Shown here: positions 1,940 through 63,048 of the stretch, one piece after another
Layout: the number at the start of each line of letters is the position of its first letter
How positions within the stretch are numbered: position 1 is the stretch's first letter
Source of the DNA: Mycobacteriales bacterium
GTDB lineage: Bacteria; Actinomycetota; Actinomycetes; Mycobacteriales; SCTD01
DNA length: 64,000 nucleotides
Assembly: GCA_035540755.1 (NCBI GenBank)
Contig: DATLGD010000223.1
Location: 152 to 64,151, forward strand
Reading direction: 5' to 3'
Translations under genes and position numbers: made by a program
The notes under the pieces: generated by a model
The model's input: the letters and a program-made list of their open reading frames with translations, nothing else
What the model was told of the DNA's origin: nothing
Database searches by the model: none

Positions 1940-2087
1940 CCGGTCTCTCGCCTTCCTCGCTGCTGGTGCGGCCGCGGTCCGACGCGGTCCGCGGGCCGAC
2001 CCTAGTGGCAGCCCCTACCCCGGTCGCCGGCGCGGACACGGCCGGGGTGGGCGGGCCCCGCGCCGTCGCGTCGGTAGAGTCATCGAG

Positions 2088-3080: not shown

Positions 3081-3082
3081 GC

Positions 3083-4880: not shown

Positions 4881-4884
4881 CAGC

Positions 4885-5424
4885 CTACGGTCGCGCCGGG
4901 CGTCCGGCCGCCTCGACGTCGTCGTAGACGAGGACGTCGGCGTCCCGCCGCGCTCCGGTTGTCGGCCGGTGCGGGCTGACGCGGCCCGGCATCAGGTGCT
5001 GCACCTCGACGCCGTGCAGCAGCACCAGCGCGTCGGCCACGAGCCGGCGGTGGCAGCGCCACCAGACCGTCTCGCTGCACAGGAACGCGGTCGGCGCGGC
5101 GACGCCGTCGGCGAGCAGGTCGGCGAGCGCCGCCTGCGCCGCCTCGGTGCGCAGGTGGCCGGCGTACCCGCGGAAGGAGGCGTTCTGCCACACCACGTCC
5201 GGGCTGGCGGGCGCCGGCCGCCGGAATCCGCCGAGCCGCGGCTCCCAGCGGTAGGCCACCCCGGCGGCGGGCAGCCACTGCTCGAGCCGGTCGCGCCCGA
5301 GGTGCGGGTGCCGCCGGCTGCCTGGGGCCGTGCGGATGTCCACCAGGCGGCGCACCTCGCCGAGCCCGAGGCGCTCGAGGAGCTCGTCCTCGCTCGCGGT
5401 GCCGTGGCCCACGCTGAACATCAC
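4885..5424 (-). CDS. DUF488 family protein
   Basis: ORF 4885..5424. The pattern FSVGHGT...LVDIR...FLCSE..WWRCHRRLVAD is characteristic of DUF488. Its start overlaps the stop of the upstream response regulator by 4 nt. Confidence 0.7.
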   Translation of the reverse strand: MMFSVGHGTASEDELLERLGLGEVRRLVDIRTAPGSRRHPHLGRDRLEQWLPAAGVAYRWEPRLGGFRRPAPASPDVVWQNASFRGYAGHLRTEAAQAALADLLADGVAAPTAFLCSETVWWRCHRRLVADALVLLHGVEVQHLMPGRVSPHRPTTGARRDADVLVYDDVEAAGRPARP

Positions 5425-6068
5425 AGCGCGGCGTGCAGCCCGGCCTCACGGGCCTTGACGATGGCCTGGGCGCGGTCCTCGACCTGCAGCTTCGCGAAGA
5501 TGCTCGAGACGTGGTTGCGCACCGTCTTGTCCGACAGGAACAGCCGTCGGGCGATCTCCCCGTTGCTGGCGCCAGCCGCCACCAGGCCGAGCACCTCGCG
5601 CTCCCGGTCCGACAGCGCAGGGAAGGGGCGGGCCGCCGCGGCGCCGGCACCGGAGAAGAAGGCCCGCACGCGGCGCGCGACGGTGCTGCCGTACACGGCG
5701 TCGCCGGCGGCCACGCCGCTCACCGCGCGCACGATCTCCTCCTGGCCGGCTCCCTTGAGCAGGTAGCCGAGCGCCCCTGCGCGCAGGGCGGCGAAGACCG
5801 TGTCGTCGTCCTCGACCATCGTGAGCACGAGGACCGCGGCGTCCGGCCACGCCTGCAGCAGGCGCCGGGTGGCCTCGACGCCGTTGAGCCGCGGCATCTG
5901 CAGGTCCATGAGCACGACGTTCGGACGGTGCTCGAGGACGGCGGCGACCGCCTCCTCGCCGTCGGCGGCCTCAGCGACGACGTCGACACCGGCCCCGTCG
6001 AGCAGCATGCGGAGCCCGGCCCGGAAGGCGGGGTGGTCGTCGGCCACGACGACCCGGATGCGGCTCAC
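5421..6068 (-). CDS. NarL/LuxR-family response regulator
   Basis: C-terminal 215 aa of ORF 5421..7790, from GTG 6068. Receiver domain (RVVVADDH, VVLMDLQMP, LVLTMVEDD, GYLLKG) plus a LuxR HTH (LSDREREVLGLVAAGASNGEIARRLFLSDKTVRNHVSSIFAKL). Confidence 0.9.
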   Translation of the reverse strand: MSRIRVVVADDHPAFRAGLRMLLDGAGVDVVAEAADGEEAVAAVLEHRPNVVLMDLQMPRLNGVEATRRLLQAWPDAAVLVLTMVEDDDTVFAALRAGALGYLLKGAGQEEIVRAVSGVAAGDAVYGSTVARRVRAFFSGAGAAAARPFPALSDREREVLGLVAAGASNGEIARRLFLSDKTVRNHVSSIFAKLQVEDRAQAIVKAREAGLHAAL

Positions 6069-48079: not shown

Positions 48080-48904
48080 TCACGGCCGCAGGCGGTCGGC
48101 CCTGGTGTAGACGTTCATCGACGCCCCGCGCAGGAAGCCGATCAGGGTCATCCCGGCCTCGTCGGCCAGGTCGACGGCCAGCGAGCTCGGCGCGCTGACG
48201 GCCGCGAGCACCGGGATGCCGGCCATCCACGCCTTCTGCGCCAGCTCGAACGAGGCGCGGCCGCTGACCAGCAGCACCGTCTCCCGCAGCGGCAGGAGGC
48301 CCTCCCGCAGGGCCCACCCGACGACCTTGTCGACGGCGTTGTGCCGGCCGACGTCCTCGCGCAGGCACAGCAGCTCGCCGTTCGGGTCGAACAGGCCGGC
48401 GCCGTGCAGGCCGCCGGTGCGGTCGAAGACCCGTTGCGCCTCGCGCAGCCGGTCCGGCAGTGCGGCCAGCACCGCGCGGTCGACCGTGACGGGGTCGTCG
48501 GCCACCGGCCACCGGGCGGTCGTGCGCACGGCGTCCAGGCTCGCCTTGCCGCACACGCCGCAGCTGGAGGTCGTGTAGAACGCCCGCTCGACCGAGGGGT
48601 CCGGAGCCGGCACCTCCGGCGCGAGCGCGACGTCGAGGACGTTGTAGGTGTTGGCGCCGTCCGAGGTGGCTCCCGCGCAGTAGCGCTGCGCCGCGACGTG
48701 CTCCGCGGCGCTCACCACCCCCTCGCTGACGAGGAAGCCCGCCGCGAGGTCCATGTCGCTGCCCGGGGTGCGCATGGTCACCGCCAGCGGCCGGCCGCCG
48801 ACCCGGATCTCCAGCGGTTCCTCGACGACGAGGGTGTCGGGACGCTCGACGTCGATGTCGCCGCCCAGGCGCAGCACGCGGCGTCGCGTCGTCGTCCGTC
48901 CCAC
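48080..48904 (-). CDS. fdhD: formate dehydrogenase accessory sulfurtransferase FdhD
   Basis: Last 274 aa of ORF 48080..49312 from GTG 48904 ([13 protein letters not shown]...). SSCGVCGK active-site loop and [11 protein letters not shown] motif. Confidence 0.85.
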
Positions 48905-49013: not shown

Positions 49014-52000
49014 ATGGGTCTGAAGGACACCTTCCTGGGGTGGCCCGTCCTGCGGCAGCTCACCGGCGACGACCCGCTCGGCCGCGGCACTGCCGTGCAG
49101 TCCGCGCGCTCGGCGTCGCTGCAGCCGCGCACCGCGACCGCCGACCGGGTGGTGCGGAGCGTGTGCCCGTACTGCGCCGTCGGCTGCGGGCAGAAGGTGT
49201 TCGTCAAGGACGAGAAGGTCGTGCAGATCGAGGGCGACCCCGACTCCCCGGTCTCCCGCGGCCGGCTGTGCCCCAAGGGCGCGGCCAGCGAGCAGTTCGT
49301 CAACGGCGCCAAGCGCGTGACGACCGTGCGCTACCGGCGTCCCGGCGGCACCGACTGGGAGGACCTCGACCTCGACACGGCGATGGAGATGATCGCCGAC
49401 CGCGTCGTCGAGACCCGCGCCCGCACCTGGCAGGACGTCGACGACCAGGGCCGCAAGGTCCGCCGCACCCTCGGGTTCGCCTCGCTCGGCGGGGCGACGC
49501 TGGACAACGAGGAGAACTACCTCATCAAGAAGCTGTTCACGGCGATGGGGGCGATCCAGGTCGAGAACCAGGCCCGGATATGACACAGCGCCACCGTCCC
49601 CAGTCTGGGGGCCTCCTTCGGTCGTGGCGGCGCCACGAACTTCCTGCAGGACCTGCAGCACAGCGACTGCATCGTCATCCAGGGCTCGAACATGGCCGAG
49701 TGCCACCCGGTCGGCTTCCAGTGGGTGCTCGAGGCCAAGGCGCGCGGTGCGAAGGTCATCCACATCGACCCGCGCTTCACCCGCACGTCGGCGCTGGCTG
49801 ACAGCCACGTCCCGCTGCGCGCCGGCAGCGACATCGCCTTCCTCGGCGGCGTCATCAACCACATCCTGTCGACGGAGTCGTACTTCCGCGAGTACGTCGT
49901 GGCGTACACCAACGCGGCGACGATCGTCGGCGAGGACTTCCAGGACACCGAGGACCTCGACGGGCTGTTCTCCGGCTACGACCCCGAGACCGCCACGTAC
50001 GACACCGAGAGCTGGGGCTACCAGCACTCGCCGGGCGGTCCGGCCGACGCGCAGGAGAACGACGACGAGAGCGCCCTGTCCGAGCGGAAGCGCGCGGCGG
50101 GTCACGAGCTCGGCGGCCACGGCGCGACGCTCGAGGGCTACGACGTCGAGCGCGACGAGACGCTCCAGCACCCGCGCTGCGTCTTCCAGGTGCTCAAGCG
50201 GCACTACGCCCGCTACACCCCGGAGGTCGTGGAGGAGGTCTGCGGCGTGCCGCAGCACCTGTTCCGCGAGGTGTGCGAGGCGGTCGTGGCCAACAGCGGC
50301 CGCGAGCGCACGACGGCGTGGGTCTACTCGGTCGGCTGGACCCACCACTCCACCGGTGTGCAGTACATCCGCGGGTCGGCGATTATCCAGCTGCTGCTCG
50401 GCAACATGGGCCGTCCAGGCGGCGGCATCCTGGCGCTGCGCGGGCACGCGAGCATCCAGGGCTCGACCGACATCCCGACCCTCTACAACATCTTGCCGGG
50501 CTACCTGCCGATGCCCAAAGCGGGGGAGCACGACGACTTCGGGGACTACCTCGAGGCGATCCACGAGCCGGGGCAGAAGGGCTTCTGGGCCAACGCCGAC
50601 GCCTACGTCGTCAGCCTGCTCAAGGCCTACTGGGGAGAGGCGGCGACACCGGACAACGGCTTCTGCTTCGACTACCTGCCGAGGCTGACCGGCGACCACG
50701 GCACCTACCGCACCGTGATGGACATGGTCGACGGCAAGGTCGAGGGCTACTTCCTCGTCGGGCAGAACCCGGCCGTCGGCTCCGCGCACGGGAAGCTGCA
50801 GCGGCTCGGCATGGCGAACCTGAAGTGGCTCGTCGTGCGCGACGTGAACATGATCGAGTCGGCGACGTTCTGGAAGGACGGGCCGGAGATCGCGACCGGC
50901 GAGCTGCGCACCGAGGACATCGACACCGAGGTGTTCTTCCTCCCGGCCGCCACGCACGTGGAGAAGGCCGGCACGTTCACGCAGACGCAGCGGATGCTGC
51001 AGTGGCGGCACAAGGCGATCGACCCACCGGGTGACTGCCGGCCCGAGCTGGACTTCTACTACAAGCTCGGCGTCCTGGTGCGCGAGCGGCTCGCCGGGTC
51101 GACGCTCGAGCGCGACCGGCCGGTGCTCGACCTCGCCTGGGACTACCCGGTCGACGAGCACGGCGAGCCCGACGCCGAGTCGGTGCTGGCCGAGATCAAC
51201 GGCCGGTTCCTGACCGGACCCCGCGCGGGCCAGCCGCTCGACGGCTTTACCGACATGCGCGCCGACGGCTCCACCGACGGCGGCTGCTGGATCTACAGCG
51301 GCGTCTACAAGGACGGCGTCAACCAGTCGGCGCGACGCAAGCCGCACACCGAGCAGGACTGGGTCGCGAACGAGTGGGGTTGGGCCTGGCCGATGGACCG
51401 GCGCACCCTCTACAACCGCGCCTCGGCAGACCCGGACGGCAGGCCGTGGAGCGAGCGCAAGGCCTACGTCTGGTGGGACGAGGAGCAGCAGCGCTGGACC
51501 GGGCACGACGTGCCGGACTTCATCGCCGACCGGCCGCCGTCCTACCGGCCGGGGGAGGGGGCAACCGGCGTCGACGCACTGGCCGGTGACGACCCGTTCG
51601 TCATGCAGGGCGACGGCAAGGGCTGGCTGTTCGCCTCGACGGGTCTGCTCGACGGGCCGCTGCCGGCCCACTACGAGCCGCACGAGTCGCCGGTCGTCAA
51701 CCCGCTGTACGCCCAGCAGGGGAACCCCACGCGGCAGGTGTTCCGGCGCGAGGACAACCCGTCGAACCCCTCGGCCACCGAGCGGGGCGGCGACGTCTTC
51801 CCGTACGTCTTCACCACCTACCGGCTCACCGAGCACCACACCGCCGGCGGCATGAGCCGGTGGGTGCCGTACCTGTCCGAGCTGCAGCCGGAGTTCTTCT
51901 GCGAGGTCTCGCCGGAGCTCGCCCGCGAACGCGGTCTCGAGCACCTCGGCTGGGCGACCATCACGACCGCGCGCACCGCCATCGAGGCGCGGGTGCTGGT

Positions 52001-52316
52001 CACCGACCGCATGGTGCCGCTGCACGTCGGCGGCAAGGTGATCCACCAGATCGGGTTGCCGTACCACTGGGGTGTCGGGGACGACGCCGTCGTCAGTGGC
52101 GACTCGGCGAACGACCTGTTCGGCCTGGCGCTCGACCCGAACGTGCACATCCAGGAGAGCAAGGTGGCCAGCTGCGACATCACGCCGGGACGCCGGCCGA
52201 CCGGCCCCGCTCTGCTCCGGCATGTCGAGCGGTACCGCGACCGCGCCGGCATCACGACGGCCACCGGCAACTTCCGCAGCGACGCCGAGCCCCGACCCGC
52301 AGGAGAAGCCCGATGA
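49014..52316 (+). CDS. fdhA: formate dehydrogenase catalytic subunit (Mo/W-bisPGD), selenocysteine-containing; TGA 49581-49583 read as Sec
   Basis: ORFs 48753..49583 and 49692..52316 are in the same frame (starts both divisible by 3). ATG 49014 follows GAGGAG. Motifs: CPYCAVGCG 4Fe-4S motif; read-through gives [28 protein letters not shown], which parallels the Sec site of E. coli FdnG; [10 protein letters not shown]. Confidence 0.9.
49584..49633 (+). promoter_or_regulatory. candidate bacterial SECIS stem-loop immediately 3' of the Sec TGA
   Basis: Inner hairpin GTCCCCA-GTC-TGGGGGC (49596-49612) starts 12 nt after the TGA. An outer helix pairs GCGCC (49588-49592) with GGCGC (49629-49633). 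The apical sequence CAGUCUG resembles the fdhF CAGGUCUG loop. Confidence 0.5.
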
Positions 52317-53338
52317 GCAGCAGCAACAGCCTGTTCGGGCCCCTCGACCCGGCGCCCGACGCGGGCTGGACCGAGGCGCCGCCGCGCAAGGGGTTCTTCA
52401 CCGACACCTCCATCTGCATCGGCTGCAAGGCCTGCGAGGTGGCGTGCAAGGAGTGGAACGCCGTCCCGGACGACGGCATGCAGCTGCTCGGCTCCTCCTA
52501 CGACAACACCGGTGCCCTCGGCGCGAGCACCTGGCGGCACGTCGCCTTCATCGAGCAGCCGAAGCCGCTCGGGGCGCAGGAGCCGGGCATGGCCGGCACC
52601 GCCGCCGGCCCGCCCGCGACCGACGTGCTGAACCGGACCGCGGAGAGCGCGCTGGCCGGCGACCGGAGCAAGCTCGGCACCGACAGCACGGCCGTCGACC
52701 TCGGCATGCCGGGCACGCAGCTGCCCGGCGAGGCCGATGGCGCGCAGCGCAGCGAGTTCCGCTGGCTGATGGCCTCCGACGTCTGCAAGCACTGCACGCA
52801 CGCAGGCTGCCTGGACGTCTGCCCGACGGGGGCGCTGTTCCGCACCGAGTTCGGCACGGTCGTGGTGCAGGACGACATCTGCAACGGCTGCGGCTACTGC
52901 GTGGCCGCATGCCCCTTCGGCGTCATCGACCGGCGGGTGGGGGACAAGGGCGTCACCAAGAACGCCGGCATCGCGCAGAAGTGCACGCTCTGCTACGACC
53001 GGCTCGGCGACGGGCTGCAGCCGGCCTGCTCGAAAGCATGCCCGACCACCAGCATCCAGTTCGGCGACCTCGACGAGCTTCAGGAGCGCGCGCAGAGGCG
53101 GGTCGAGCAGCTGCACGAGGCAGGCGTCACGTCGGCCCGGCTGTACGGCGAGGACGAGAACGACGGCGTCGGGGGCGTGGGGGCGTTCTTCCTGCTGCTC
53201 GACGAGCCGGAGGTCTACGGGCTGCCGCCGGACCCGGTCGTCACGACCAAGGACCTGCCGGCCATGTGGCGGCAGGCCGGGCTCGCCGCCCTGACGATGC
53301 TCGCCGGCGCCGTCGCGGTGTTCGGGGTGCGCCGGTGA
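52313..53338 (+). CDS. formate dehydrogenase Fe-S (4x[4Fe-4S]) subunit with a C-terminal TM anchor
   Basis: ATG 52313 (ATGA overlap with fdhA). Cys clusters CIGCKACEVAC, CKHCTHAGCLDVCP, CNGCGYCVAACP, CTLCYDR...CSKACP. C-terminal helix AGLAALTMLAGAVAVFGV. Confidence 0.9.
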   Translation: MSSSNSLFGPLDPAPDAGWTEAPPRKGFFTDTSICIGCKACEVACKEWNAVPDDGMQLLGSSYDNTGALGASTWRHVAFIEQPKPLGAQEPGMAGTAAGPPATDVLNRTAESALAGDRSKLGTDSTAVDLGMPGTQLPGEADGAQRSEFRWLMASDVCKHCTHAGCLDVCPTGALFRTEFGTVVVQDDICNGCGYCVAACPFGVIDRRVGDKGVTKNAGIAQKCTLCYDRLGDGLQPACSKACPTTSIQFGDLDELQERAQRRVEQLHEAGVTSARLYGEDENDGVGGVGAFFLLLDEPEVYGLPPDPVVTTKDLPAMWRQAGLAALTMLAGAVAVFGVRR

Positions 53339-54450
53339 CGGCGACCTCCCCGCGCGACCCGGTCGGCACGCCGAGCACCGGGCCGGAGGCTTCCGCGGTC
53401 CCCGGTTCCGCGGGTCGGCACAAGGACAAGGGCAAGGGCAAGGGCAGGGGTGGGCGCGGCGACAAGAACGCGGTCGTGCCGCCGGCGGAGTTCACCTCGT
53501 ACTACGGGCGCCCCGTCGTCAAGGCCTCGCCGTGGGAGCACGACATCCCCGCCTACCTGTTCCTGGGCGGCGTGGCCGCCGGCTCGTCACTGCTGGCCGC
53601 CGGGGCCGACCTGACCGGCCGACCGGCGCTGCGCCGGACCGGTCGGCTGGCGTCGCTGGTGGGTCTGACGCTGAGCATGCTGGCGCTGGTCAAGGACCTC
53701 GGTCGCCCCGAGCGCTTCCACCACATGCTGCGCGTGGTGAAGCCGACGTCGCCGATGTCGGTGGGCACCTGGCTGCTGACGCTCTACGGCCCGTTCGCCG
53801 GGCTCGCCGCCGCCGGGGAGCTGCGCGGGCTGCTGCCGAGGCGACTGCGCGACGGCGTGGCCGGCCGGCTGCTCGGCGCCTCTGCCCGCCCGGCGGGGCT
53901 GACAGCCGCCGTCGTCGCGCCCACGATCGCGTCCTACACCGCCGTGCTGCTGTCCGACACCGCCACGCCCACCTGGCACGACGCGCACCGGCACCTGCCG
54001 TTCGTGTTCGTCGGCTCGGCCGCGGCCGCCTCCGGCGGGCTCGGGATGATCGGTGCGCCGGTCCACGAGGCCGGGCCGGCCCGGCGCCTGGCCATCGGCG
54101 GTGCGCTGCTCGAGCTGGCCGTCGAGCGCAGGATGGAGCAGGCGATGGGGCTGACCGCCGAGCCGCTCCACCAGGGGCACGCAGGACAGCTCATGCGGGC
54201 CAGCAAGGTGCTCACCGCCGCCGGCGCGGCCGGGGCGCTGCTGCTCGGCGGACGCAGCCGCACCGCGGCCGCGGTGTCCGGCGCGGCGCTGATGGCCGGA
54301 TCCGCCTGCCTGCGCTTCGGGTTCTTCGACGCGGGGCAGGACAGCGCCCGCGACCCCAAGTACACCGTCGTCCCGCAGCGCGAGCGCCTCGAGCGCGGCG
54401 AGGCGGTCCGGCACGGGGGTTCCCGCCCGTCCGCCGAACCCGAGAGGTAG
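53335..54450 (+). CDS. NrfD/PsrC-like polytopic membrane subunit
   Basis: GTG 53335 (GTGA overlap with fdhB). After a basic low-complexity N-terminus come about 8 TM segments (WEHDIPAYLFLGGVAAGSSLLAA...) typical of NrfD-family quinone-interacting subunits. The exact start is uncertain. Confidence 0.75.
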   Translation: MTATSPRDPVGTPSTGPEASAVPGSAGRHKDKGKGKGRGGRGDKNAVVPPAEFTSYYGRPVVKASPWEHDIPAYLFLGGVAAGSSLLAAGADLTGRPALRRTGRLASLVGLTLSMLALVKDLGRPERFHHMLRVVKPTSPMSVGTWLLTLYGPFAGLAAAGELRGLLPRRLRDGVAGRLLGASARPAGLTAAVVAPTIASYTAVLLSDTATPTWHDAHRHLPFVFVGSAAAASGGLGMIGAPVHEAGPARRLAIGGALLELAVERRMEQAMGLTAEPLHQGHAGQLMRASKVLTAAGAAGALLLGGRSRTAAAVSGAALMAGSACLRFGFFDAGQDSARDPKYTVVPQRERLERGEAVRHGGSRPSAEPER

Positions 54451-54453
54451 CCG

Positions 54454-55878
54454 ATGTCCCTGGTCTCCTTCCTGGACCGTGAGCACTCCGTCGCTCCCGC
54501 CGGGTACAGCCGATGGCTGGTGCCGCCGGCGGCGCTGGCCATCCACCTGTCGATCGGCCAGGTCTACGCGCTGAGCGTCTTCAAGACCCCGCTGGTCGAG
54601 CGGTTCGAGACCAGCGAGACAGCGATCGCCATCGTGTTCTCGATCGCGATCGTGATGCTGGGGCTGTCCGCCGCCTTCGGCGGGACGTGGATGGAGCGCA
54701 ACGGTCCGCGCAAGGCCATGGCCCTGTCGGCGGTCTGCTTCGTCACGGGGCTGCTGGTCGGCGGCCTCGGGATCGCCACCGGCCAGCTGTGGCTGCTCTA
54801 CCTGGGTTACGGGGTCATCGGCGGCATCGGGCTCGGGTTGGGCTACATCTCGCCGGTCTCGACGCTCATCAAGTGGTTCCCCGACCGTCCCGGACTCGCG
54901 ACCGGGCTGGCCATCATGGGCTTCGGCGGCGGCGCGTTCATCGCCTCCAACCTGTCGAACGAGCTGCTCGGCGCCTACACCTCGCTGCCGGCGGACGCCG
55001 TGCCGACCGACGCGGTGGCGCCGGCCTTCTTCACCCTGGCGCTGATCTACGCGCTGTTCATGACCTTCGGCGTGCTCACCGTGCGCGTCCCGCGCGACGG
55101 CTGGAAGCCCGAGGGGTACGAGCCCAAGGCCGACAGCGGCGGGCTGCGCACCACCGCGCACGTGGCCGCGAGCGAGTCCATCAAGACCCCGCAGTTCTGG
55201 CTGCTCTGGACGATCCTGTTCTGCAACGTCACCGCCGGCATCGGCATCATCGAGCAGGCCTCGCCGATGATCCGGGACTTCTTCCCGGACGACGTCAGCC
55301 CGGCCGCGGCGGCCGGCTTCGTCGGACTGCTGTCGCTGGCCAACATGGCCGGGCGCATCGTCTGGTCGTCGACGTCCGACGCCATCGGCCGCAAGCCGAC
55401 CTACATGCTCTACACCGGCGTCGGAGCCGTCGCGTTCTTCTTCCTGGCCACGGCGGGCGACACCAGCGTCCTGCTGTTCGTGGTGCTGGCGGCGGTCATC
55501 CTGAGCTTCTACGGCGGTGGCTTCGCGACGATCCCCGCCTACCTCAAGGACCTGTTCGGCACCTTCCAGGTGGGTGCCATCCACGGCCGGCTGCTGACGG
55601 CCTGGTCCGCCGCCGGCGTCGCGGGTCCGCTCATCGTCAACGGCATCATCGAGCGCCAGCGCGACGCCGGGGTCGAGGGGGCGGCGACCTACCGGCCGGC
55701 GCTGCTGGTGATGGTCGGCCTGCTCAGCATCGGCTTCGTGGCGAACCTGCTCGTGCGCCGGGTGGCCGACAGGCACCACGCCAGCGCCGACGTCCTGGGC
55801 ACCTATCCGGGCGTCACCAGCCAGCAGACCACCGGATCCGCGAAGACGGCCCCGAGCGCCTCAGGAGGCACCCGATGA
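54454..55878 (+). CDS. MFS transporter, oxalate/formate antiporter (OFA) family
   Basis: ORF 54454..55878. Twelve TMs. N-terminal RWLVPPAALAIHLSIGQVYALSVF and LGYGVIGGIGLGLGYISPVSTLIKWFPDRPGLATG are OFA-family signatures. Confidence 0.85.
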   Translation: MSLVSFLDREHSVAPAGYSRWLVPPAALAIHLSIGQVYALSVFKTPLVERFETSETAIAIVFSIAIVMLGLSAAFGGTWMERNGPRKAMALSAVCFVTGLLVGGLGIATGQLWLLYLGYGVIGGIGLGLGYISPVSTLIKWFPDRPGLATGLAIMGFGGGAFIASNLSNELLGAYTSLPADAVPTDAVAPAFFTLALIYALFMTFGVLTVRVPRDGWKPEGYEPKADSGGLRTTAHVAASESIKTPQFWLLWTILFCNVTAGIGIIEQASPMIRDFFPDDVSPAAAAGFVGLLSLANMAGRIVWSSTSDAIGRKPTYMLYTGVGAVAFFFLATAGDTSVLLFVVLAAVILSFYGGGFATIPAYLKDLFGTFQVGAIHGRLLTAWSAAGVAGPLIVNGIIERQRDAGVEGAATYRPALLVMVGLLSIGFVANLLVRRVADRHHASADVLGTYPGVTSQQTTGSAKTAPSASGGTR

Positions 55879-55997
55879 GCGAGCAGTACAGCGGCGTCAA
55901 GGCGCGCCTGGTCGGAGCGTGGCTGTTCGTGGGCATCCCGCTCGCCTACGGCATCGTGCAGACCGTCCGCCGGGCCGCCGCCCTGTTCACCGGCTAG
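55875..55997 (+). CDS. 40-aa single-TM microprotein translationally coupled to the OFA transporter
   Basis: ATG 55875 (ATGA overlap), AGGAGG 7 nt upstream. MSEQYSGVKARLVGAWLFVGIPLAYGIVQTVRRAAALFTG. Confidence 0.5.
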   Translation: MSEQYSGVKARLVGAWLFVGIPLAYGIVQTVRRAAALFTG

Positions 55998-56977
55998 CGG
56001 ACCTCGACCACCGCGTCGCGCCGGGCGACCACCTCGCCGACGATCGGTGCGCCCGGCACCTCGCCGACGACGAGCAGGCCACCGCTGGTCTGCGCGTCGG
56101 CGAGCAGCAGCAGCTCGTCCTCCTCGACGGATGCCGACAGGTGCGGGCGCACCCAGTCGAGGTTGCGCCGGGTGCCGCCGCTGACGTAGCCGTCGGCCAG
56201 CGAGCTGCGCGCACCGTCGAGGTAGGGCACGGCGGCGGCGTCGACGACGGCCGTGGTGCCGCTGGCGCGCATCATCTTGAACAGGTGCCCGAGCAGGCCG
56301 AAGCCGGTGACGTCGGTGGCCGCGCGTGCCCCGCTCTCCACCGCAGCCCGGGCGGCGTCGCGGTTCAGGCGCGTCATGCACTCGACCGCGTGCTCGAACC
56401 GCTCGCCGGTCGCCTTGTGCCGGTTGTTGAGCACGCCGACGCCGAGCGGCTTGGTGAGGCTGAGCGGCCGGCCCGGCTCGGCGGCGTCGTTGCGCAGCAG
56501 CGCGCCCGGGTCGACGACCCCGGTGACCGCCATGCCGTACGTCGGCTCGGGCCCGTCGACGCTGTGGCCGCCGGCGACCGGGCAGGCGGCCTGCCGGGCG
56601 ACGTCGGCGCCGCCGCGCAGCACCTCGCCGAGCAGCTCGGCCGGCAGCAGCTCGCGCGGCCAGGCGACCAGGTTGATGGCGACGACCGGCCGGCCGCCCA
56701 TCGCGTACACGTCCGACAGCGCATTGGCCGCCGCGATGCGACCCCAGTCGTAGGCGTCGTCGACCACCGGGGTGAAGAAGTCGGCCGTGCTGACGACGGC
56801 GGTGCGGGCGTCGAGGCGCACGACGGCGGCGTCGTCGCCGTCGTCGAGCCCGACGAGCAGGTCCGGTCCCGCGGCACCGGTCAGCCCGCGCACGGCGTCC
56901 TCGAGCTCACCCGGCGGGATCTTGCAGGCGCAGCCGCCGCCCTTCGCCAGCTGGGTCAGCCGAAGCGTCGTCGTCAC
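55994..56977 (-). CDS. selD: selenide, water dikinase (selenophosphate synthetase), Cys form
   Basis: ORF 55994..56977 (GTG start). Glycine-rich N-terminal loop LAKGGGCACKIPP, then DDAAV and the AIR-synthase-like fold. No in-frame TGA. Confidence 0.9.
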   Translation of the reverse strand: MTTTLRLTQLAKGGGCACKIPPGELEDAVRGLTGAAGPDLLVGLDDGDDAAVVRLDARTAVVSTADFFTPVVDDAYDWGRIAAANALSDVYAMGGRPVVAINLVAWPRELLPAELLGEVLRGGADVARQAACPVAGGHSVDGPEPTYGMAVTGVVDPGALLRNDAAEPGRPLSLTKPLGVGVLNNRHKATGERFEHAVECMTRLNRDAARAAVESGARAATDVTGFGLLGHLFKMMRASGTTAVVDAAAVPYLDGARSSLADGYVSGGTRRNLDWVRPHLSASVEEDELLLLADAQTSGGLLVVGEVPGAPIVGEVVARRDAVVEVR

Positions 56978-57075
56978 CTGCGAGAGGCTAGGTCAGCCGG
57001 TGAGCGCGCGCTCGCGCTAGAGCGCTGGGGCCTCCGCCACCACGGTCGGGACGTCGAGGTGGGTGTTGCCCGTCG

Positions 57076-57558
57076 TCAGGTGCCGGCGCGGTACTGGGCC
57101 AGCAGGCGCTCGGCCTCGTCGGCGCCGGACTGCTCGACGAGGACCTCGTACCGGGCCGCGGCCAGGCCCTTGGTGGAGCTGAAGTCGCGCCGACCGCCGG
57201 TGGCCCGGTGAGCGGCGAACCCGAGCGCGGCGCCGAAGGCGGCGCCGAACAACAGCCCGTACAGGGCCAGTCCGAGCAGGGCCGTGCCGGACTCGGCGAA
57301 CAGGCCGACGAACAGGCCGAGGAGCAGCCCGAACCAGCTCATCGAGGCGGCGCCCGCGAGCGCCGCCTTGCCGGTCGTCAGGCGCCCGGTGACCTGCTCG
57401 ACGAGGCGCAGGTCCGCGCCGACGATGGTCACCGTCTCGACCGGGAAGCCGTGGTCGGACAGGTGGTCGACGACGGCCTGCGCCTGCTCGTACTGGGGCC
57501 AGGAGCCGAGCGCGTGCCGGCCCACCGGAAGGGGGCGGGGTGTGCCTGGTGTGGTCAT
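57076..57558 (-). CDS. membrane protein with an N-terminal general-stress-protein-17M (YflT)-like domain
   Basis: ORF 57076..57558. SWPQYEQAQAVVDHLSDHGFPVETVTIVGADL, then two glycine-zipper TM helices. Lies between selO and selD on the same strand. Confidence 0.6.
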   Translation of the reverse strand: MTTPGTPRPLPVGRHALGSWPQYEQAQAVVDHLSDHGFPVETVTIVGADLRLVEQVTGRLTTGKAALAGAASMSWFGLLLGLFVGLFAESGTALLGLALYGLLFGAAFGAALGFAAHRATGGRRDFSSTKGLAAARYEVLVEQSGADEAERLLAQYRAGT

Positions 57559-57628
57559 GGCCTCGGCCTACCCGGCTGGGCGGCCGGGCAGCCGGCTCGT
57601 CTGCGTGACGTCGCCGACGTCGATCCGG

Positions 57629-59089
57629 TCAGGTCCCGCAGAAGGTCCGGTAGGAGCTGTCCTCGGGGCCGGGTGCGGCGTAGCGCTCCAGGCCCGGGCG
57701 CTCGTCGAACGGGGCGGTGACCGCTGTGAGCAGCCGCTGGAGCGGGTCCAGGTCGCCGGCGGTGCCGGCGTCGAGGGCCTCCTCGACGAGGTGGTTGCGC
57801 GGGATGTAGACCGGGTTCACGCGGTCCATCGCCGCTCCGTCGGGCGCGAGGGCCTGCCAGCGCTGCAGCCAGGCGTCGACCGCCGCGAGGTCGAGCACGA
57901 GGCCGCGCGCCGGCTCGGTGTCGCCGCGGGCGGCCTGCCCCAGCGCCCGGAAGAACGAGGTCAGGTCGACGTGGTTGGCCTGCAGCAGGGCCAGCAGCTC
58001 CTCGACGAGCGGGCGGACGACGTCGTCGTCGTCGCCGTCGGTCAGCCCGAGCTTGCGGCGCATGCCGGCCGTCCAGGCGGCGCTGTACTGCGGCCGGTAG
58101 CCGCCGAGCGACTCGACGGCGAGGGCGATGGCCTGCTCCTCGTCGTCGTGCAGCAGCGGCAGCATCGCCTCCACCAGCCTGGCCAGGTTCCACTCGGCGA
58201 CGACCGGCTGGTTGCCGTAGGCGTACCGGCCGCCGGTGTCGATCGAGCTGAACACCCGGGCCGGGTCGAAGGCGTCGAGGAAGGCGCAGGGGCCGTAGTC
58301 GATGGTCTCGCCGGAGATCGTGGTGTTGTCGGTGTTCATGACCCCGTGGACGAAGCCGACGAGCATCCACTGCGCCACCAGAGACGCCTGCGCGGTGACG
58401 ACCGCCTCGAACAGGGCGCGGTAGGGCTGCTCGGCGTCGGCGGCCTCGGGATGGTGCCGGGCGATGGCGTGGTCGGCCAGCCGGCGCAGCAGCGCGACGT
58501 CGCCGGTCGCGCGGGCGTACTGGAAGGTGCCCACGCGCAGGTGGCTGCTCGCGACCCGGGCGAGCACCGCTCCGGGCAGCGGCGTCTCGCGCCGCACCGT
58601 GCGGCCGGTGCCGACGACGGCCAGGGCCCGGGTGGTCGGGATCCCGAGCGCGTGCATCGCCTCGGCGACGACGTGCTCGCGCAGCATCGGACCGACCGCG
58701 GCCAGGCCGTCGCCGCCACGGGCGAAGGGGGTGCGCCCGCTGCCCTTGAGGTGCAGGTCGCGCGGTCGACCGTCCTGGCAGGCGAACTCGCCGAGCAGCA
58801 GCGCCCGACCGTCACCGAGTCGCGGGTTGAAGCCGCCGAACTGGTGCCCGGCGTACGCCTGCGCCACCGGTGTGGCGCCGTCGAGCACCAGCGTCCCGAC
58901 CAGGAAGCGCAGCCCCTCGGAGGTGCGCAGCCAGTCGGGGTCCAGGCCGAGCTCGACGGCCAGCGGCTCGTTCAGCACCAGCAGCCGCGGATCCGGCGCG
59001 TCCTCGGCCTGCCAGCGCACCGCCAGCTCGGGCAGCTCGCGGGCGAAGCGGTCGTCGAGCAGCGTGCGGGGCACGGCGGGGACGTTCAT
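57629..59089 (-). CDS. selO: SelO/YdiU-family protein adenylyltransferase (AMPylase), Cys form
   Basis: In ORF 57629..59122. ATG 59089 preferred, GTG 59122 possible. [61 protein letters not shown]-terminus ...YRTFCGT. Confidence 0.9.
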
Positions 59090-59167
59090 CGTCCGACGGT
59101 ACGTGCCGGCCGGTTGTGGCACCCTGCACGTCGGTCACGGACGAGCGCTCGGTGCGGTCGTGGTCGA

Positions 59168-59260
59168 GGAGGCGTACGCGTGCCTGGTGGCCGTCCCGGT
59201 CTTCAAAACCGGTGTGGGCGAGGATCTCGTCCAGGTGGGTTCGATCCCCATCCGCCTCCG
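59168..59260 (+). tRNA. selC: tRNA-Sec (anticodon UCA)
   Basis: Hand fold: acceptor GGAGGCG/CGCCTCC (7 bp); 6-bp D-stem with one bulge and a UGGU loop; anticodon arm CCGGU-CUUCAAA-ACCGG; long variable arm GGGCGAG-GAU-CUCGUCC; T-arm GGUGGG-UUCGAUC-CCCAUC (6 bp); discriminator G. The acceptor plus T helix totals 13 bp. CCA is not encoded. Confidence 0.9.
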
Positions 59261-59349
59261 CCGACGAGTTGCCGTCCGGGCCGGTTCCGCCGCCCTCGGC
59301 GCGGGCAGACCGTCGCCGACGCGCACGACCGACGACGCGAGGAGACACC

Positions 59350-59514
59350 GTGGGGCTGCTGGGCGGGATGATCAAGGCCGGCGTGGCCAAGAAGGTCTAC
59401 GACGAGGCGCGCAAGCCGCACAACCAGGCGAAGATCAAGCAGATGCTGTCGAAGGCGACGGGCAAGGGGTCGGGCGGGACAGGCAGCAGCGGCCCGGGCG
59501 CCGGGCAGCCCTGA
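59350..59514 (+). CDS. small Lys-rich protein (54 aa), hypothetical
   Basis: GTG 59350 with GAGGAG 6 nt upstream. VGLLGGMIKAGVAKKVYDEARKPHNQAKIKQMLSKATGKGSGGTGSSGPGAGQP. A Lys-rich composition with high GC3 is unlikely for a shadow frame. Confidence 0.35.
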   Translation: MGLLGGMIKAGVAKKVYDEARKPHNQAKIKQMLSKATGKGSGGTGSSGPGAGQP

Positions 59515-59535
59515 GCGCACGGTCGGCCGGCAGTC

Positions 59536-59781
59536 TCACCGGGGGCCGGCCTGCCGGCGCAGCGACTCCTGTCCGGCGGCCACGGCTCCGCGCAGCCGGC
59601 TCAGGCGCTCCGCCCGGTCGCGGCGGGCGGCCGCGTCGTCCGGCGGGGGGAGCGCGGTCAGCCGCTCGGCGAGGGCATGGGCGTGCAGGACCACGACGGC
59701 GGTGCGCTGCACGCCGACCTCGACGTCGCCCGCCGCGTCTTCCAAGGGTGAGGACGGACGGCGGCGCTGCGATCGGTCCAT
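59536..59781 (-). CDS. hypothetical protein (81 aa)
   Basis: Last 81 codons of ORF 59536..62106 from ATG 59781, with GGAGG 5 nt upstream. No family recognised. Confidence 0.35.
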   Translation of the reverse strand: MDRSQRRRPSSPLEDAAGDVEVGVQRTAVVVLHAHALAERLTALPPPDDAAARRDRAERLSRLRGAVAAGQESLRRQAGPR

Positions 59782-59943
59782 GACACCTCCTGCCGGCCCA
59801 GGGTCAGGTGCGCCGATCAGCGCAGTGCACCACGCCCGGACGCCGGTCGAGGACACGAGCTGGTCACGACTGGGCGGTGCGGGATCGAGCTGGCGCTGCG
59901 CCGCCCGGCTGCTCCGCAGCCGGTCCGACGTAGGGTCCGAGAC

Positions 59944-61257
59944 GTGACAGCGGTCGAGCCGGACCGGCGACGCGCGGTGCCGCGCACCGACGCCGTGCTC
60001 GCCGACCCGCGCCTGGCGCGGGCCGCCGAGCGGCTCGGACGCGAGCGGGTGAAGCGAGCCGTCCGCGAGGCTCAGGACGCCGTCCGCACGGGCCGGCTGG
60101 CGCCCGACCAGGTGGCCGACGCCGCCGTCGCCGCTCTGCCGCCCCGCACCACGACGCTGCGGCCGGTGCTGAACGCCACCGGCGTGGTCGTGCACACCAA
60201 CCTCGGCCGGGCGCCGCTGTCGGCCGCGGCCGTCGAGGCGCTGCAGACCGCCGCCGGCAACGTCGACGTCGAGTACCACGTCGCCACCGGCCAGCGGGCG
60301 CGGCGCGGTCGGGGCGCGCTCGCCGCCCTGCACGCCGCCGTCCCCGACGCCGAGGCGGTGCACGTGGTCAACAACGGGGCGGCCGCCCTCGTGCTCGCGA
60401 CCACGGCGCTCGCCGCCGGCCGCGAGGTGGTGGTCAGCCGCGGCGAGATGGTCGAGATCGGCGACGGCTTCCGGCTCCCGGACCTCATCGCGTCCACCGG
60501 CGCCCGCCTGCGCGAGGTCGGCACCACCAACCGCACCACAGTGAGCGACTACGCCGACGCCGTGGGCCCGGACACCGGCTGCGTGCTCAAGGTGCACCCC
60601 AGCAACTTCCGGGTGGCCGGCTTCACCGGCGCTGTGGACGTCGCCGAGCTCGCCGGGCTCGACGTTCCCGTCGTCGTCGACATCGGCAGCGGCCTGCTCG
60701 CGCCGCACCCGCTGCTGCCCGACGAGCCGGACGCGCGGACGGCGCTGCGCGGCGGGGCCGAGGTCGTCACCGCGAGCGGCGACAAGCTGCTCGGCGGTCC
60801 GCAGGCCGGGCTGCTCCTCGGTCGCGCGGGCGTCGTCGAGCGGCTGCGCCGGCACCCGCTCGCGCGCGCCCTGCGGGTCGACAAGCTGACGCTGGCTGCG
60901 CTCGAGGCGACGATCGACGGACCGCCCACGCCGGTGCGCCTGGCGCTCGACGCCGACCCTGCCGGGCTGCGCGCGCGGGCGGACGCGCTCGCCGCCGACG
61001 TCGGGGGCGACGTCGTCCCGAGCGACGGCGCGGTCGGAGGCGGCGGGGCACCCGGCCTGCTCCTGCCCGGCTGGGCGGTGGCCCTCCCGGAGGACCGTGC
61101 TCCCGACGCCTGGGCGCTCGCGCTGCGCACCGGCGAGCCCTGCGTGGTCGGGCGGGTCGAGCGCGGCCGGTGCCTGCTCGACCTGCGCTGCATCGCCCCG
61201 GCCGACGACGCGTCGGTCGCGGCGGCCGTCACCGCCGCCGCCGGCGCGGCGGGGTAG
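59944..61257 (+). CDS. selA: L-seryl-tRNA(Sec) selenium transferase
   Basis: ORF 59944..61257 (GTG start). LRPVLNATGVVVHTNLGRAPL, VVNNGAAALVL, PLP-lysine region ASGDKLLGGPQAG. Confidence 0.9.
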   Translation: MTAVEPDRRRAVPRTDAVLADPRLARAAERLGRERVKRAVREAQDAVRTGRLAPDQVADAAVAALPPRTTTLRPVLNATGVVVHTNLGRAPLSAAAVEALQTAAGNVDVEYHVATGQRARRGRGALAALHAAVPDAEAVHVVNNGAAALVLATTALAAGREVVVSRGEMVEIGDGFRLPDLIASTGARLREVGTTNRTTVSDYADAVGPDTGCVLKVHPSNFRVAGFTGAVDVAELAGLDVPVVVDIGSGLLAPHPLLPDEPDARTALRGGAEVVTASGDKLLGGPQAGLLLGRAGVVERLRRHPLARALRVDKLTLAALEATIDGPPTPVRLALDADPAGLRARADALAADVGGDVVPSDGAVGGGGAPGLLLPGWAVALPEDRAPDAWALALRTGEPCVVGRVERGRCLLDLRCIAPADDASVAAAVTAAAGAAG

Positions 61258-61260
61258 CGC

Positions 61261-63048
61261 GTGCACGTCGTCGCGACCGCCGGGCACGTCGACCACGGCA
61301 AGTCCACGCTGGTGCGCGGGCTGACCGGCACCGAGCCGGACCGCTGGGCCGAGGAGCGGCGCCGCGGCATGACCATCGACCTCGGCTACGCCTGGACCGA
61401 GCTGCCGAGCGGTGAGCAGGTCGCGTTCGTCGACGTCCCCGGCCACGCCCGCTTCGTCGGCAACATGCTCGCCGGGCTCGGGCCCGCGCCGGCCGTGCTG
61501 TTCGTCGTCGCCGCCGACGAGGGCTGGCGCCGGCAGTCCGGCGAGCACCTCGCCGCCGTCGACGCGCTCGGCCTGTCGGCGGGTCTGCTGGCGGTGACCC
61601 GCAGCGACCTCGCCGACCCCGCCCCCGCGATCGAGGAGGCGAGGGAGCACCTGTCCCGCAGCAGCCTCGGCGACGTCGAGGCGGTCGCGGTGTCGGGTCA
61701 GACCGGCGCCGGACTGGACGTGCTGCGCGCCGCCCTCGACCGGCTGGTCGCCCGGCTCCCGGTGCCCGACACCGTCGGGCCGGTCCGGCTGTGGGTCGAC
61801 CGCGCCTTCACCGTGCGCGGTGCCGGCACGGTGGTCACCGGCACCCTGGGCGCCGGTGCGCTCGCCGTCGGCGACGAGCTCGAGCTGCGCGGGCGCCGGG
61901 TGCGGGTGCGCGGCCTGCAGTCGCTCGAGCAGCCCCGGGAGCGGATGGGTGCGGTGGCGCGCGTGGCGGTGGCGCTGCGCGGCGTCGAGCGCGCCGACGT
62001 CGGCCGCGGGGACGCCCTGCTCGCCCCGGGACGGTGGCGGGCCGCTTCGACGCTCGACGTGCGGCTCCGGCCCGCGGGCACCCTGCCCGAGCGGCTGGTG
62101 CTGCACGTCGGCACGGCGGCGGTGCCGGTGCGGCTGCGGCCGCTGCGCGACGACCTCGCGCGGCTGCAGCTCAGCACTGCGCTGCCGCTGCGGGCCGGCG
62201 ACCGCGCCCTGCTACGCGACCCGGCGGCGCAAGAGGTGGCCGCGGGCGTCACGGTCCTGGACGCCGACCCGCCGGACCTCCGTCGGCGCGGGTCGGCCCG
62301 CGAGCGCGCTGCCGTGCTCGCCGGGACGACCGGCCCGCCGGACGGGATCGCGGAGGTGGAGCGCCGAGGCGCGGTGCGCCGCGCCGACCTCGAGGCGCTG
62401 GGCGTGCCGGTCCCCGACGGCGGGCGCAGTGCCGGCGGCTGGCTGGTCAGCGAGCAGCGGTGGCAGGTCTGGCGGGCCGAGCTGCGCCGGGTCGTCGAGC
62501 AGCACGACGCCGTGGCGCCGCTGGACCGGGGGCTGCCGCACGACGCCGCACGGCGCGCCGCCGGCATCCCCGACCTCGCCGTGCTCGCTGCGGTGGCCGG
62601 GGACGCCGAGCTCGTCGACGAGGCGGGCCGGCTGCGCAGCACGCAGGAGCTCGGCCTGGGGTCGGCCGAGCCCGGGGTCCGGGCGCTGGAGGAGCGGCTG
62701 ACCGCCGGCCCCTTCGCCGCACCGGAGCGGCCGGACCTCGACGCGCTCGGCCTCGACGTCCGCGCGGTCGCCGCCGCCGCCGCCGCCGGCCGGCTGCTGC
62801 GGCTGCGCGCCTCCGACGGCGGCGACGTCGTGCTGCTGCCCGACGCGCCGGCGCGGGCGATGCGCGAGCTCGCCCGGCTGCCCCAGCCGTTCTCGCTCAG
62901 CGCCGCCCGCCAGGCCCTCGGCACGACGCGGCGGGTGGCCGTCCCGCTGCTCGAGCACCTCGACGCGCGCGGCTGGACCCGCCGGGTCGACAGCTCCGCG
63001 CGCGAGGTGGTGCGCGGCGGGAGTGCGGCGTCGGGCCCGCCCCGATAG
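61261..63048 (+). CDS. selB: selenocysteine-specific translation elongation factor
   Basis: ORF 61261..63048 (GTG start, 3 nt after selA). G domain [21 protein letters not shown]-terminal winged-helix extension. Confidence 0.9.

Follow-up and report, generated by a model that had tools for sequence, protein, structure and literature searches.

We analyzed a 64,000-nt stretch of a Mycobacteriales genome (the window) in which a gene for a SelO homologue lies between genes for selenocysteine (Sec) utilization. Profile searches, ARAGORN, Rfam and a check of the coordinates upheld the gene calls, gaps and orientations of the initial annotation for selD, the YflT-domain gene, selO and tRNA-Sec. The first three lie on the minus strand, named here by ascending coordinate, and the tRNA-Sec gene (selC) diverges on the plus strand, a layout that we confirmed to the base. 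The gaps are 98 nt between selD and the YflT-domain gene (56978-57075), 70 nt between the latter and selO (57559-57628), and 78 nt between selO and tRNA-Sec (59090-59167). The selD-selC interval, which contains selO and yflT, spans 2.19 kb. A complete Sec island surrounds this insert and comprises fdhD, a Sec-containing fdhA, fdhB, fdhC, a gene for an MFS transporter, selD and selC-selA-selB. The features are as follows.

49014..52316, plus strand: fdhA, formate dehydrogenase alpha subunit (from translation; in-frame TGA at 49581-49583, QARI-U-HSATV)
52313-53338, plus strand: fdhB (4Fe-4S; Pfam annotation of the identical gene on conspecific contig L168, mapped back)
53335-54450, plus strand: fdhC, NrfD-like membrane subunit (Pfam annotation of the identical L168 gene, mapped back)
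54454-55878, plus strand: MFS transporter, oxalate/formate or lactate type (NF049980, 338 bits; TIGR00890, 187.7 bits)
55875-55997, plus strand: membrane ORF of 40 aa (called in L168, L176, L178 and L180)
55994..56977, minus strand: selD, selenide-water dikinase, Cys type (GGGCACK), GTG start (TIGR00476, 388.8 bits, cut-off 125)
57076..57558, minus strand: YflT-domain (general stress protein 17M-like) small membrane protein, 160 aa (PF11181)
57629..59089, minus strand: selO/ydiU, predicted protein adenylyltransferase, 486 aa (PF02696, NF000658)
59168..59262, plus strand: selC, tRNA-Sec, anticodon TCA (ARAGORN; Rfam RF01852)
59263..59943, no strand: tRNA-Sec–selA spacer, 681 nt, with two small ORFs inside
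59350-59514, plus strand: small ORF in this spacer, 54 aa (gene calls on conspecific contigs L168 and L169)
59536-59781, minus strand: small ORF in this spacer, 81 aa (gene calls on L168 and L169)
59944..61257, plus strand: selA, L-seryl-tRNA(Sec) selenium transferase, GTG start (TIGR00474, 413.2 bits)
61261..63048, plus strand: selB, Sec-specific elongation factor (TIGR00475, 272.2 bits; PF09107, PF25461)

The tRNA-Sec gene matches the RF01852 covariance model over its full length with 71.9 bits (cut-off 47), and ARAGORN reads its anticodon as tca. The selenoprotein served by the island is fdhA. Public gene calls on L168 break this gene into a PF04879 piece and a PF00384/PF01568 piece. The sequence after the fdhA TGA folded no better than shuffled sequence when we looked for a SECIS hairpin (z = -0.16). 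The ATG of the 40-aa membrane ORF overlaps the stop of the MFS transporter gene, and its 3' end overlaps the selD stop. In some relatives (e.g., L085), selA begins about 30 nt past tRNA-Sec.

The window stems from a metagenome-assembled genome, so we considered a chimeric contig in which a selO-yflT fragment had been fused to a sel locus. An exact-sequence look-up of the window's own SelO returned no record; the YflT protein led us to conspecific contigs instead. Five of them (L168-L172, from ENA ERZ27256763 and ERZ27256757, JGI 3300028104 and 3300028041, and Logan SRR8438992) carry the same layout with identical junctions in separate samples and assemblies, at 99.7-99.9% DNA identity to the window. 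Finding the layout five times independently shows that it is a genuine genomic arrangement. The insert is also placed precisely within an otherwise collinear island, and GC3 is uniform (0.95-0.96) across selO, yflT and selD. We give an assembly artefact a negligible probability. The same samples also point to a candidate selD allele with a 51-nt deletion.

The SelO and YflT-domain proteins

Bacterial SelO takes its name from a selenoprotein, but we know of no role for it in selenium metabolism. The protein in the window matches PF02696 with 359.8 bits (cut-off 22.8) over residues 32-467 and the NCBIfam YdiU family NF000658 with 508.4 bits (cut-off 431). It aligns over its full length to P. syringae SelO 6EAC (E = 1.5e-101), and in this alignment the HLKGxGRTP and HGVMNTDN...DYGP motifs are identical. 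The lysine of HLKG is presumably the beta3 lysine and the aspartate of DYG/DFG the metal-binding residue. This assignment draws in part on published structures (PMC12409994). Judged by its sequence, the protein is a conventional SelO/YdiU member in which no catalytic motif is missing and whose C-terminal Cys is shared across the family. By homology, it would be a kinase-fold enzyme that moves AMP (or UMP) from a nucleotide triphosphate onto Ser, Thr or Tyr residues of client proteins as part of redox and stress homeostasis; a redox role of SelO has been published (PMC12409994).

The C-terminus reads ...RTFCGT and is followed by the stop codon TGA at 57629-57631. The translation thus has a Cys third from the end, as the initial annotation had it. 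That annotation was also right in placing Sec at this position in mammalian SELENOO, as human SELENOO ends in CVTUSS> (PMC3281104). Nor does the Cys set this locus apart: T[FY]CGT> is invariant in 80/80 homologues, and Cxx> is the commoner published C-terminal state of the family (PMC3281104). The FCGT end is already published and is not new.

The YflT-domain protein matches PF11181 with 76.7 bits (cut-off 26.2) over residues 18-83, and a Gly/Ala/Leu-rich hydrophobic stretch can be read at residues ~64-117. Homologues with 82-86% identity occur in many actinobacterial metagenomes. The only one of this set whose context we examined (P0123, 85%) lies in an unrelated locus and adjoins a mechanosensitive-channel gene. 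A 4.16-Mb contig of a relative encodes homologues of both YflT (85%) and SelO (80%), about 2.1 Mb apart and in loci unrelated to sel genes. We rejected YflT as a travelling partner of SelO, given that a homologue was found in only one of ~88 SelO loci (L162), where it has 50% identity and lies 2.5 kb upstream of SelO with other genes between.

SelO and selD neighbourhoods in other organisms

We compared the locus with the genomic contexts of SelO and SelD elsewhere. We examined 80 genome loci with the closest homologues of SelO (identity 51-81%), most of them including flanks of 10 kb. They come from many taxa and contain no SelD, SelA, true SelB, YflT or tRNA-Sec. The same sel genes are missing from eight further SelO contexts (80-82% identity), no two of which are alike. 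Overall, selD, selA, selB or tRNA-Sec lay near SelO in 0/88 loci of other organisms. We also searched for synteny between the window, using all of its high-GC3 ORFs, and the SelO loci of relatives. This candidate was dropped: there is no shared context, since only ABC-transporter ATPase paralogues matched.

The reverse comparison gave the same picture. No SelO and no YflT were present in 80 metagenome loci whose SelD has 72-84% identity, and neither was found near SelD in any of 85 loci of relatives (0/85), for which the firm denominator is ~58 loci with a fully visible selD-selC interval, since short contigs make up many of them. Neither set shows selO enriched beside sel genes, as a selenium link would imply. 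In a published census (PMC10364804 supplement), the SelA domain has 12 listings among SelO neighbourhoods (fraction 0.0003), whose total we back-calculated as ~39,000. By our own rough estimate, this is no more than chance. Selenium genes are absent from the published COG neighbourhood analysis of SelO, and a systematic context survey of selenium genes never names SelO, YdiU or UPF0061 in its text (PMC5322559). Recurrent co-localization of selO with sel genes in independent lineages did not occur.

These data bear on a general, ancient link between SelO and selenium utilization, of which the locus would be a surviving trace. The name and the Sec/Cys C-terminal position are common to SelO and eukaryotic SELENOO, and a rhodanese gene adjoins SelO in one relative (L162), all of which would fit such a link. 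SelO neighbourhoods, however, differ even at 80-82% identity and none includes sel genes, SelA is no more frequent beside SelO than roughly expected by chance, and the systematic surveys of selenium gene context did not find SelO. The lack of enrichment largely refutes an ancient link, and we regard it as extremely unlikely.

The interval between selD and tRNA-Sec varies among relatives. It could be measured in the 55 SelD loci that include tRNA-Sec; in 44/55 the tRNA gene is divergent and ≤200 nt from selD, and the remaining 11/55 hold 0.4-9.8 kb of heterogeneous cargo. The closest SelD relatives carry the fdh/selD flank of the window, which is fully visible only in L178/9, and their slots contain genes of other kinds: a PAS-GGDEF-EAL protein, KaiB and a KaiC-like protein in L176 (89%), an ECF sigma factor, two methyltransferases and DsrE in L178/9 (86%), a nitroreductase-like protein in L180 (87%), and AOR, MobA, SDR, CysQ, CysNC and CysD in L083 (82%). 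A few slots have sulfur- or selenium-flavoured occupants (DsrE in L178, CysDN/CysQ in L083), and for this reason functional neutrality of the slot may not hold in all lineages. We found no integrase or transposase within the selD-selC interval of the window, and the repeats flanking the selO-yflT insert were only weak, GC-rich ones at chance level.

Promoter-like elements and the operon question

Promoter-like hexamers precede several genes of the locus. A TACCGT hexamer lies 6 nt upstream of the selO ATG at 59089; because it would serve as a -10 element, this ATG is a likelier start than the upstream GTG at 59122, and the selO mRNA is probably leaderless. TAGCCT lies 7 nt upstream of the selD GTG (56977), a leaderless-type promoter by sequence, and TAGGGT lies 7 nt upstream of the selA GTG. 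The background frequency of TANNNT in the window is 0.0002 per position, and relatives have the motif 6-7 nt before the start in 74/80 selD loci and 56/76 selO loci. The -10 of selD in the window matches that of selD in relatives, including those with tRNA-Sec as the immediate neighbour. No Shine-Dalgarno sequence precedes selD.

Of 55 relatives, 46 have a TANNNT hexamer 6-8 nt ahead of the mature tRNA-Sec 5' end; at this distance it is absent from the window, L176 and L178. We rejected the selO insertion as the cause of this loss, as L176 and L178 lack the hexamer with different cargo. TGGCAC...TGCA upstream of tRNA-Sec was discarded as a sigma-54 site because, on our reading, its GG-GC spacing is wrong.

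The arrangement invites the question of whether selO, yflT and selD are transcribed together. Like the members of an operon, they lie on one strand at short distances (70 and 98 nt), but an operon would also have no internal promoter ahead of its downstream genes, and here the putative promoter TAGCCT precedes selD. A consensus scan for sigma-70 promoters and terminators found nothing, an outcome that for sigma-70 follows from the poor fit of the TTGACA/TATAAT model to a 75% GC genome. Compared with shuffled sequence, folding was slightly better for the selO-yflT spacer (z = -2.0) but not for the yflT-selD spacer (z = -0.16). Read-through from selO into selD is possible because the genes are co-oriented, the gaps are short and the scan showed no intrinsic terminator. 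The leaderless-type -10 elements that selD and selO each keep argue against an obligatory selO-yflT-selD operon, and the conserved one directly before selD makes a selO-yflT-selD transcript less likely. We suggest that selO would be transcribed independently from its own leaderless-type promoter, that yflT may share that transcript, and that selD would retain the promoter type seen in its relatives.

These considerations also weigh on a species-specific recruitment, in which the Sec island captured selO and yflT, co-expresses them with selD, and uses the stress protein or redox control by AMPylation to guard or regulate selenophosphate synthesis or formate dehydrogenase (FDH) maturation. The co-orientation, the short gaps, the lack of a terminator in the scan, the fixed state of the arrangement across different samples of the species (five contigs) and the published redox role of SelO (PMC12409994) are consistent with it. 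We nevertheless consider it unlikely. The arrangement does not recur in 88 SelO or 85 SelD loci, and the slot of the nearest relatives holds unrelated cargo. With a leaderless-type -10 of its own and no Shine-Dalgarno sequence, selD would be translated poorly from within a longer transcript. Among the full texts searched, only 5 papers mention YdiU as well as selenium, and the latter appears no more than once or twice in each of them.

Interpretation and comparison with known systems

We conclude with considerable confidence that selO-yflT is a lineage-specific insertion or relocation into the selD–tRNA-Sec interval of an otherwise canonical actinobacterial Sec island. The juxtaposition is real but lineage-specific, it involves known genes, and the evidence does not support a functional selenium link. 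The initial annotation had left open whether the linkage was coincidence or a hint of a redox or AMPylation tie to selenium handling. Coincidence is the favoured half of that alternative, and the functional hint found no backing in the 88 SelO and 85 SelD loci. As the arrangement is confined to one species and slot cargo differs per lineage, it provides no real evidence for SelO in selenium metabolism, and the position of SelO beside sel genes would reflect plasticity of the interval.

A local adaptive coupling between SelO and the Sec island is conceivable, because SelO acts in redox homeostasis and both Sec enzymes and selenide are oxygen-sensitive. In its specific form, SelO (with YflT) would have been recruited in this one species and co-regulated with selD, and kinase-fold AMPylation would, during oxidative stress, regulate or safeguard the synthesis of selenophosphate or the maturation of FDH; we hold this to be very unlikely. 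Such a recruitment, if true, would link a bacterial SelO to selenium physiologically for the first time. In practice, the case advises caution: these actinobacteria have a hypervariable slot between selD and selC, so a location beside sel genes, when seen in one genome only, does not count as evidence of function. Annotators may find use in the catalogue of variable slot cargo and in the consistent leaderless-type promoters predicted for selD, selO and selA, along with the TANNNT element of tRNA-Sec.

We compared the locus with known systems. The canonical actinobacterial Sec island described in mycobacteria (PMC13449736) has the same gene set, orientations and adjacent Sec-containing fdhA as the window. 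The window differs in its selD-selC interval, which is 2.19 kb with selO and yflT compared with ≤200 nt in 44/55 relatives, and in its 681-nt selC-selA spacer with two small ORFs; a hypothetical gene between selC and selA is known from some mycobacterial species (PMC13449736). The selenium-linked accessory genes YedE, YedF/SirA-DsrE, LysR_Se and DUF3343 were found by genomic context (PMC5322559) and, like selO here, adjoin selD or other selenium genes. Those genes, however, recur beside selenium genes across many phyla, with YedE restricted to selenium-using organisms, whereas the selO-selD pairing occurs in one species only. As a protein, the SelO of the window shares its motifs, its length of ~486 aa and the T[FY]CGT> end with P. 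syringae SelO (6EAC) and E. coli/Salmonella YdiU (6K20, 6III). It scores below two narrow NCBIfam equivalog cut-offs (395.8 vs 850 and 353.3 vs 900), as expected for a protein from a different phylum. Compared with known SelO/YdiU proteins, its chromosomal position alone is unusual.

Gene order in the Sec island

The initial annotation placed selO and yflT between selD and tRNA-Sec (selC). We confirmed this placement, and its coordinates for the four genes were exact on re-check. The window is actinobacterial (74.6% GC), and all genes at the locus are ordinary members of known families:

48080-48877, - strand: fdhD, upstream part of the island
49014-52316, + strand: fdhA, selenoprotein, in-frame TGA at 49581-49583 in a typical QARI-U-HSATV context
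upstream part of the island: fdhB and NrfD-like fdhC
54454-55878: oxalate/formate-type MFS transporter, upstream part of the island
55875-55997, + strand: hydrophobic membrane ORF, 40 aa, translationally coupled
55994-56977, - strand: selD, Cys type (GGGCACK); TIGR00476, 388.8 bits (cut-off 125)
57076-57558, - strand: YflT-domain protein, 160 aa; PF11181 as N-terminal domain, 76.7 bits
57629-59089, - strand: SelO; PF02696, 359.8 bits; YdiU family NF000658, 508.4 bits (cut-off 431)
59168-59262, + strand: tRNA-Sec; ARAGORN; Rfam RF01852, 71.9 bits (cut-off 47)
59350-59514, + strand: small ORF, 54 aa, Lys-rich with a Gly/Ser tail
59536-59781, - strand: small ORF, 81 aa
59944-61257, + strand: selA, downstream of tRNA-Sec
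61261-63048, + strand: selB, downstream of selA

The gaps are 98 nt (selD-yflT), 70 nt (yflT-selO) and 78 nt (selO-tRNA-Sec). The C-terminal half of the YflT-domain protein is hydrophobic and Gly-rich.

An assembly artefact could create such an adjacency. Seven contigs encode a YflT protein identical to that of the window. We retrieved five of them (L168-L172), from separate samples and assemblies, and each matches the window at 99.7-99.9% identity. All five have the window's order of selA, tRNA-Sec, selO, yflT, selD and MFS transporter, which excludes a chimeric assembly. GC3 is uniform across selD, yflT and selO (0.95-0.96), and no flanking repeats or mobile-element genes marking a selO-yflT insert were found at the interval.

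Three of these conspecific contigs (L170, L171 and L172, from three different samples) carry an in-frame 51-nt deletion in selD (window 56640-56690, codons 97-113). It takes out PVVAINLVAWPRELLPA, a well-conserved strand of the SelD AIRS N-domain; a short GGCCGGC repeat flanks the deletion. It may represent a probably inactive selD allele that circulates in the population; alternatively, the assemblies may have collapsed recurrently at this repeat.

Public gene calls on L168 divide fdhA into two products (189 and 874 aa), the usual mis-annotation of a selenoprotein. In a simple folding test the hairpin 3' of the fdhA TGA was no better than shuffled sequence (z = -0.16). The 40-aa ORF shares an ATGA with the MFS gene, its start codon overlapping the MFS stop behind an AGGAGG, and at its other end it overlaps the convergent selD stop. 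Since ORFs of 40-46 aa are called at the equivalent position in L168 and in three loci of close SelD relatives (L176, L178 and L180), the 40-aa product is probably a small, conserved partner of the MFS transporter. The 681-nt tRNA-Sec-selA spacer holds the 54-aa and 81-aa ORFs; in some relatives (e.g., L085) only ~30 nt separate tRNA-Sec from the selA start, and some mycobacteria have a hypothetical gene between selC and selA (PMC13449736).

Genomic contexts of SelO and SelD in other genomes

The initial annotation left open whether the adjacency is coincidence or a hint of a redox or AMPylation link to selenium handling. Scanning one genome per species, we collected the 80 loci whose SelO is closest to that of the window (51-81% identity; flanks mostly 10 kb), from Actinomycetota, Proteobacteria, Firmicutes, Nitrospinota and other groups. 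None of the 80 contained SelD, SelA, true SelB, YflT, the MFS transporter, FdhA or tRNA-Sec, also at relaxed thresholds. Eight more metagenomic or genomic SelO contexts (L161-L167 and L175; 80-82% identity), read through their Pfam annotations, had no sel genes and all differed from one another. Of the window's genes, only ABC-transporter ATPases had matches near SelO elsewhere; we rejected these as shared synteny, since they are paralogues.

In one relative, a single 4.16-Mb contig has a YflT homologue (85%) adjoining a mechanosensitive-channel gene and, ~2.1 Mb from it, a SelO homologue (80%) next to an NmrA-like gene, so SelO and YflT are not a travelling pair. Among ~88 SelO loci in all, only L162 has a YflT paralogue nearby (50% identity, within 2.5 kb). 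There (947-6521; SelO 81% identity) the neighbours are the YflT paralogue, RNase H, a SpoIIE/PP2C phosphatase, DUF2238 and a rhodanese.

Published censuses agree. In the whole-database SelO analysis of ProFaNA, the SelA domain occurs 12 times, a fraction of 0.0003 (PMC10364804), from which we back-calculated ~39,000 neighbourhoods; the tool is typically run with 5 kb each way. The same database holds about 30,000 SelA domains, and the SelO neighbourhoods contain AIRS domains 83-89 times and YflT 6 times (PMC10364804). By our rough estimate, any one gene of a 4-5 Mb genome would fall inside a 10-kb window in 0.2-0.25% of cases; the 12 SelA cases thus do not exceed chance. ABC transporters, msrB, btuE and histidine kinases were the over-represented neighbours in the original study of SelO context, which reported no selenium genes (PMC3281104). 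SelO, YdiU and UPF0061 are absent from the text of a survey of Se-gene context (PMC5322559), and in the library that we searched just five papers contain both YdiU and selenium, the latter named once or twice in each. Because selO is not enriched near sel genes in the sampled loci or the censuses, the suggested functional link is unsupported, and a general SelO-selenium connection is essentially excluded.

The SelD-centred sample comprised 80 metagenome loci (SelD 72-84% identity); tblastn and phmmer against all six-frame ORFs detected SelO or YflT in none of them. The full selD-selC interval is visible in the 55 loci with tRNA-Sec. For 44 of these, tRNA-Sec lies ≤200 nt from the selD start, divergent and followed by selA-selB, the order described in mycobacteria (PMC13449736). 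The other 11 have 0.4-9.8 kb of other DNA in between, and 15 further loci show 0.45-10 kb upstream of selD without a match to tRNA-Sec. Intervening genes are heterogeneous (FHA-domain, aldolase-like, short-chain dehydrogenases, PEP-utilising enzyme, metal-dependent hydrolase, DUF-type and membrane proteins). The interval is occupied as follows in loci of the closest SelD relatives:

L176, 4658-9185 (SelD 89%): PAS-GGDEF-EAL, KaiB, KaiC-like ATPase
L178/L179, L178 5400-8457 (SelD 86%): ECF sigma factor, two methyltransferases, DsrE-like protein
L180, 933-2308 (SelD 87%): nitroreductase-like protein
L083, 1-10000, ~10 kb (SelD 82%): aldehyde:ferredoxin oxidoreductase, MobA-like, SDR, CysQ, CysNC, CysD
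other loci of the clade, beyond these nearest relatives, with a variable interval: L086, L108, L112, L130, L146, L156

L178/L179, whose assembly accessions are numbered close to those of the conspecific contigs, share both flanks with the window (fdhD-fdhABC-MFS-small ORF-selD and selA-selB-DUF8129), and L083 has the same MFS and fdh flank. Since each nearest relative carries different cargo, this clade of actinobacteria has a hypervariable slot between selD and tRNA-Sec, with selO-yflT one of many occupants. The placement of selO-yflT by sel genes is very probably lineage-specific and functionally incidental: a gene for a standard SelO AMPylase and one for a stress protein would have ended up in a slot of the Sec island that is prone to recombination.

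Some occupants have a sulfur or selenium flavour (DsrE-like in L178; CysD, CysNC, CysQ, aldehyde:ferredoxin oxidoreductase and MobA in L083).

Transcription signals

A generic sigma-70 and terminator scan of the locus gave no match. In the window, both strands together contain the actinobacterial -10 hexamer TANNNT just 25 times (0.0002 per position), including these cases, each within the stretch given:

56978-56991: TAGCCT, 7 nt before the selD GTG
59090-59102: TACCGT, 6 nt before the selO ATG at 59089
59927-59943: TAGGGT, 7 nt before the selA GTG

TANNNT 6-7 nt before start codons is, as judged from sequence, the signature of leaderless mRNAs; relatives have the same architecture at selD (74 of 80 loci) and at selO (56 of 76 loci). 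The position of TACCGT also favours the ATG at 59089 as the start of SelO. Upstream of yflT, GAGG lies directly before the gene and TANNNT is absent, so yflT may share a transcript with selO. selD lacks a Shine-Dalgarno sequence, and its internal translation on a selO-yflT read-through RNA would therefore be inefficient. Compared with shuffled sequence, the 70-nt selO-yflT spacer folds slightly better (z = -2.0); the 98-nt yflT-selD spacer does not. From the promoter-like elements and the missing selD Shine-Dalgarno, selO(-yflT) and selD are most likely separately transcribed units. Read-through into selD is conceivable, and species-specific co-regulation of selO and yflT with selD is a slim possibility.

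Upstream of tRNA-Sec, 46 of 55 relatives have TANNNT 6-8 nt before the mature 5' end, which would place the transcription start at that end or next to it. The hexamer is absent upstream in the window (59108-59167), L176 (4658-4757) and L178 (5400-5499), which have in common a TGTGGCAC-N2-3-TGCAC motif ~45 nt upstream of tRNA-Sec.

SelO protein and its C-terminus

The initial annotation placed Sec in mammalian SELENOO where the window SelO has Cys, and rightly: human SELENOO ends CVTUSS>, and a Cxx> ending is reported to be the commoner state of the family (PMC3281104). The C-terminal Cys is already published. The T[FY]CGT> ending is invariant in 80 of 80 SelO homologues from several phyla; the motif is uninformative about this particular locus. 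Because the Cys codon is TGC and the gene closes with an ordinary stop, the window SelO is not a selenoprotein. It aligns over its full length to P. syringae SelO (6EAC; E = 1.5e-101) and likewise to E. coli/Salmonella YdiU, and the HLKGx-type and DYGP motifs are kept between it and the known SelO/YdiU proteins.
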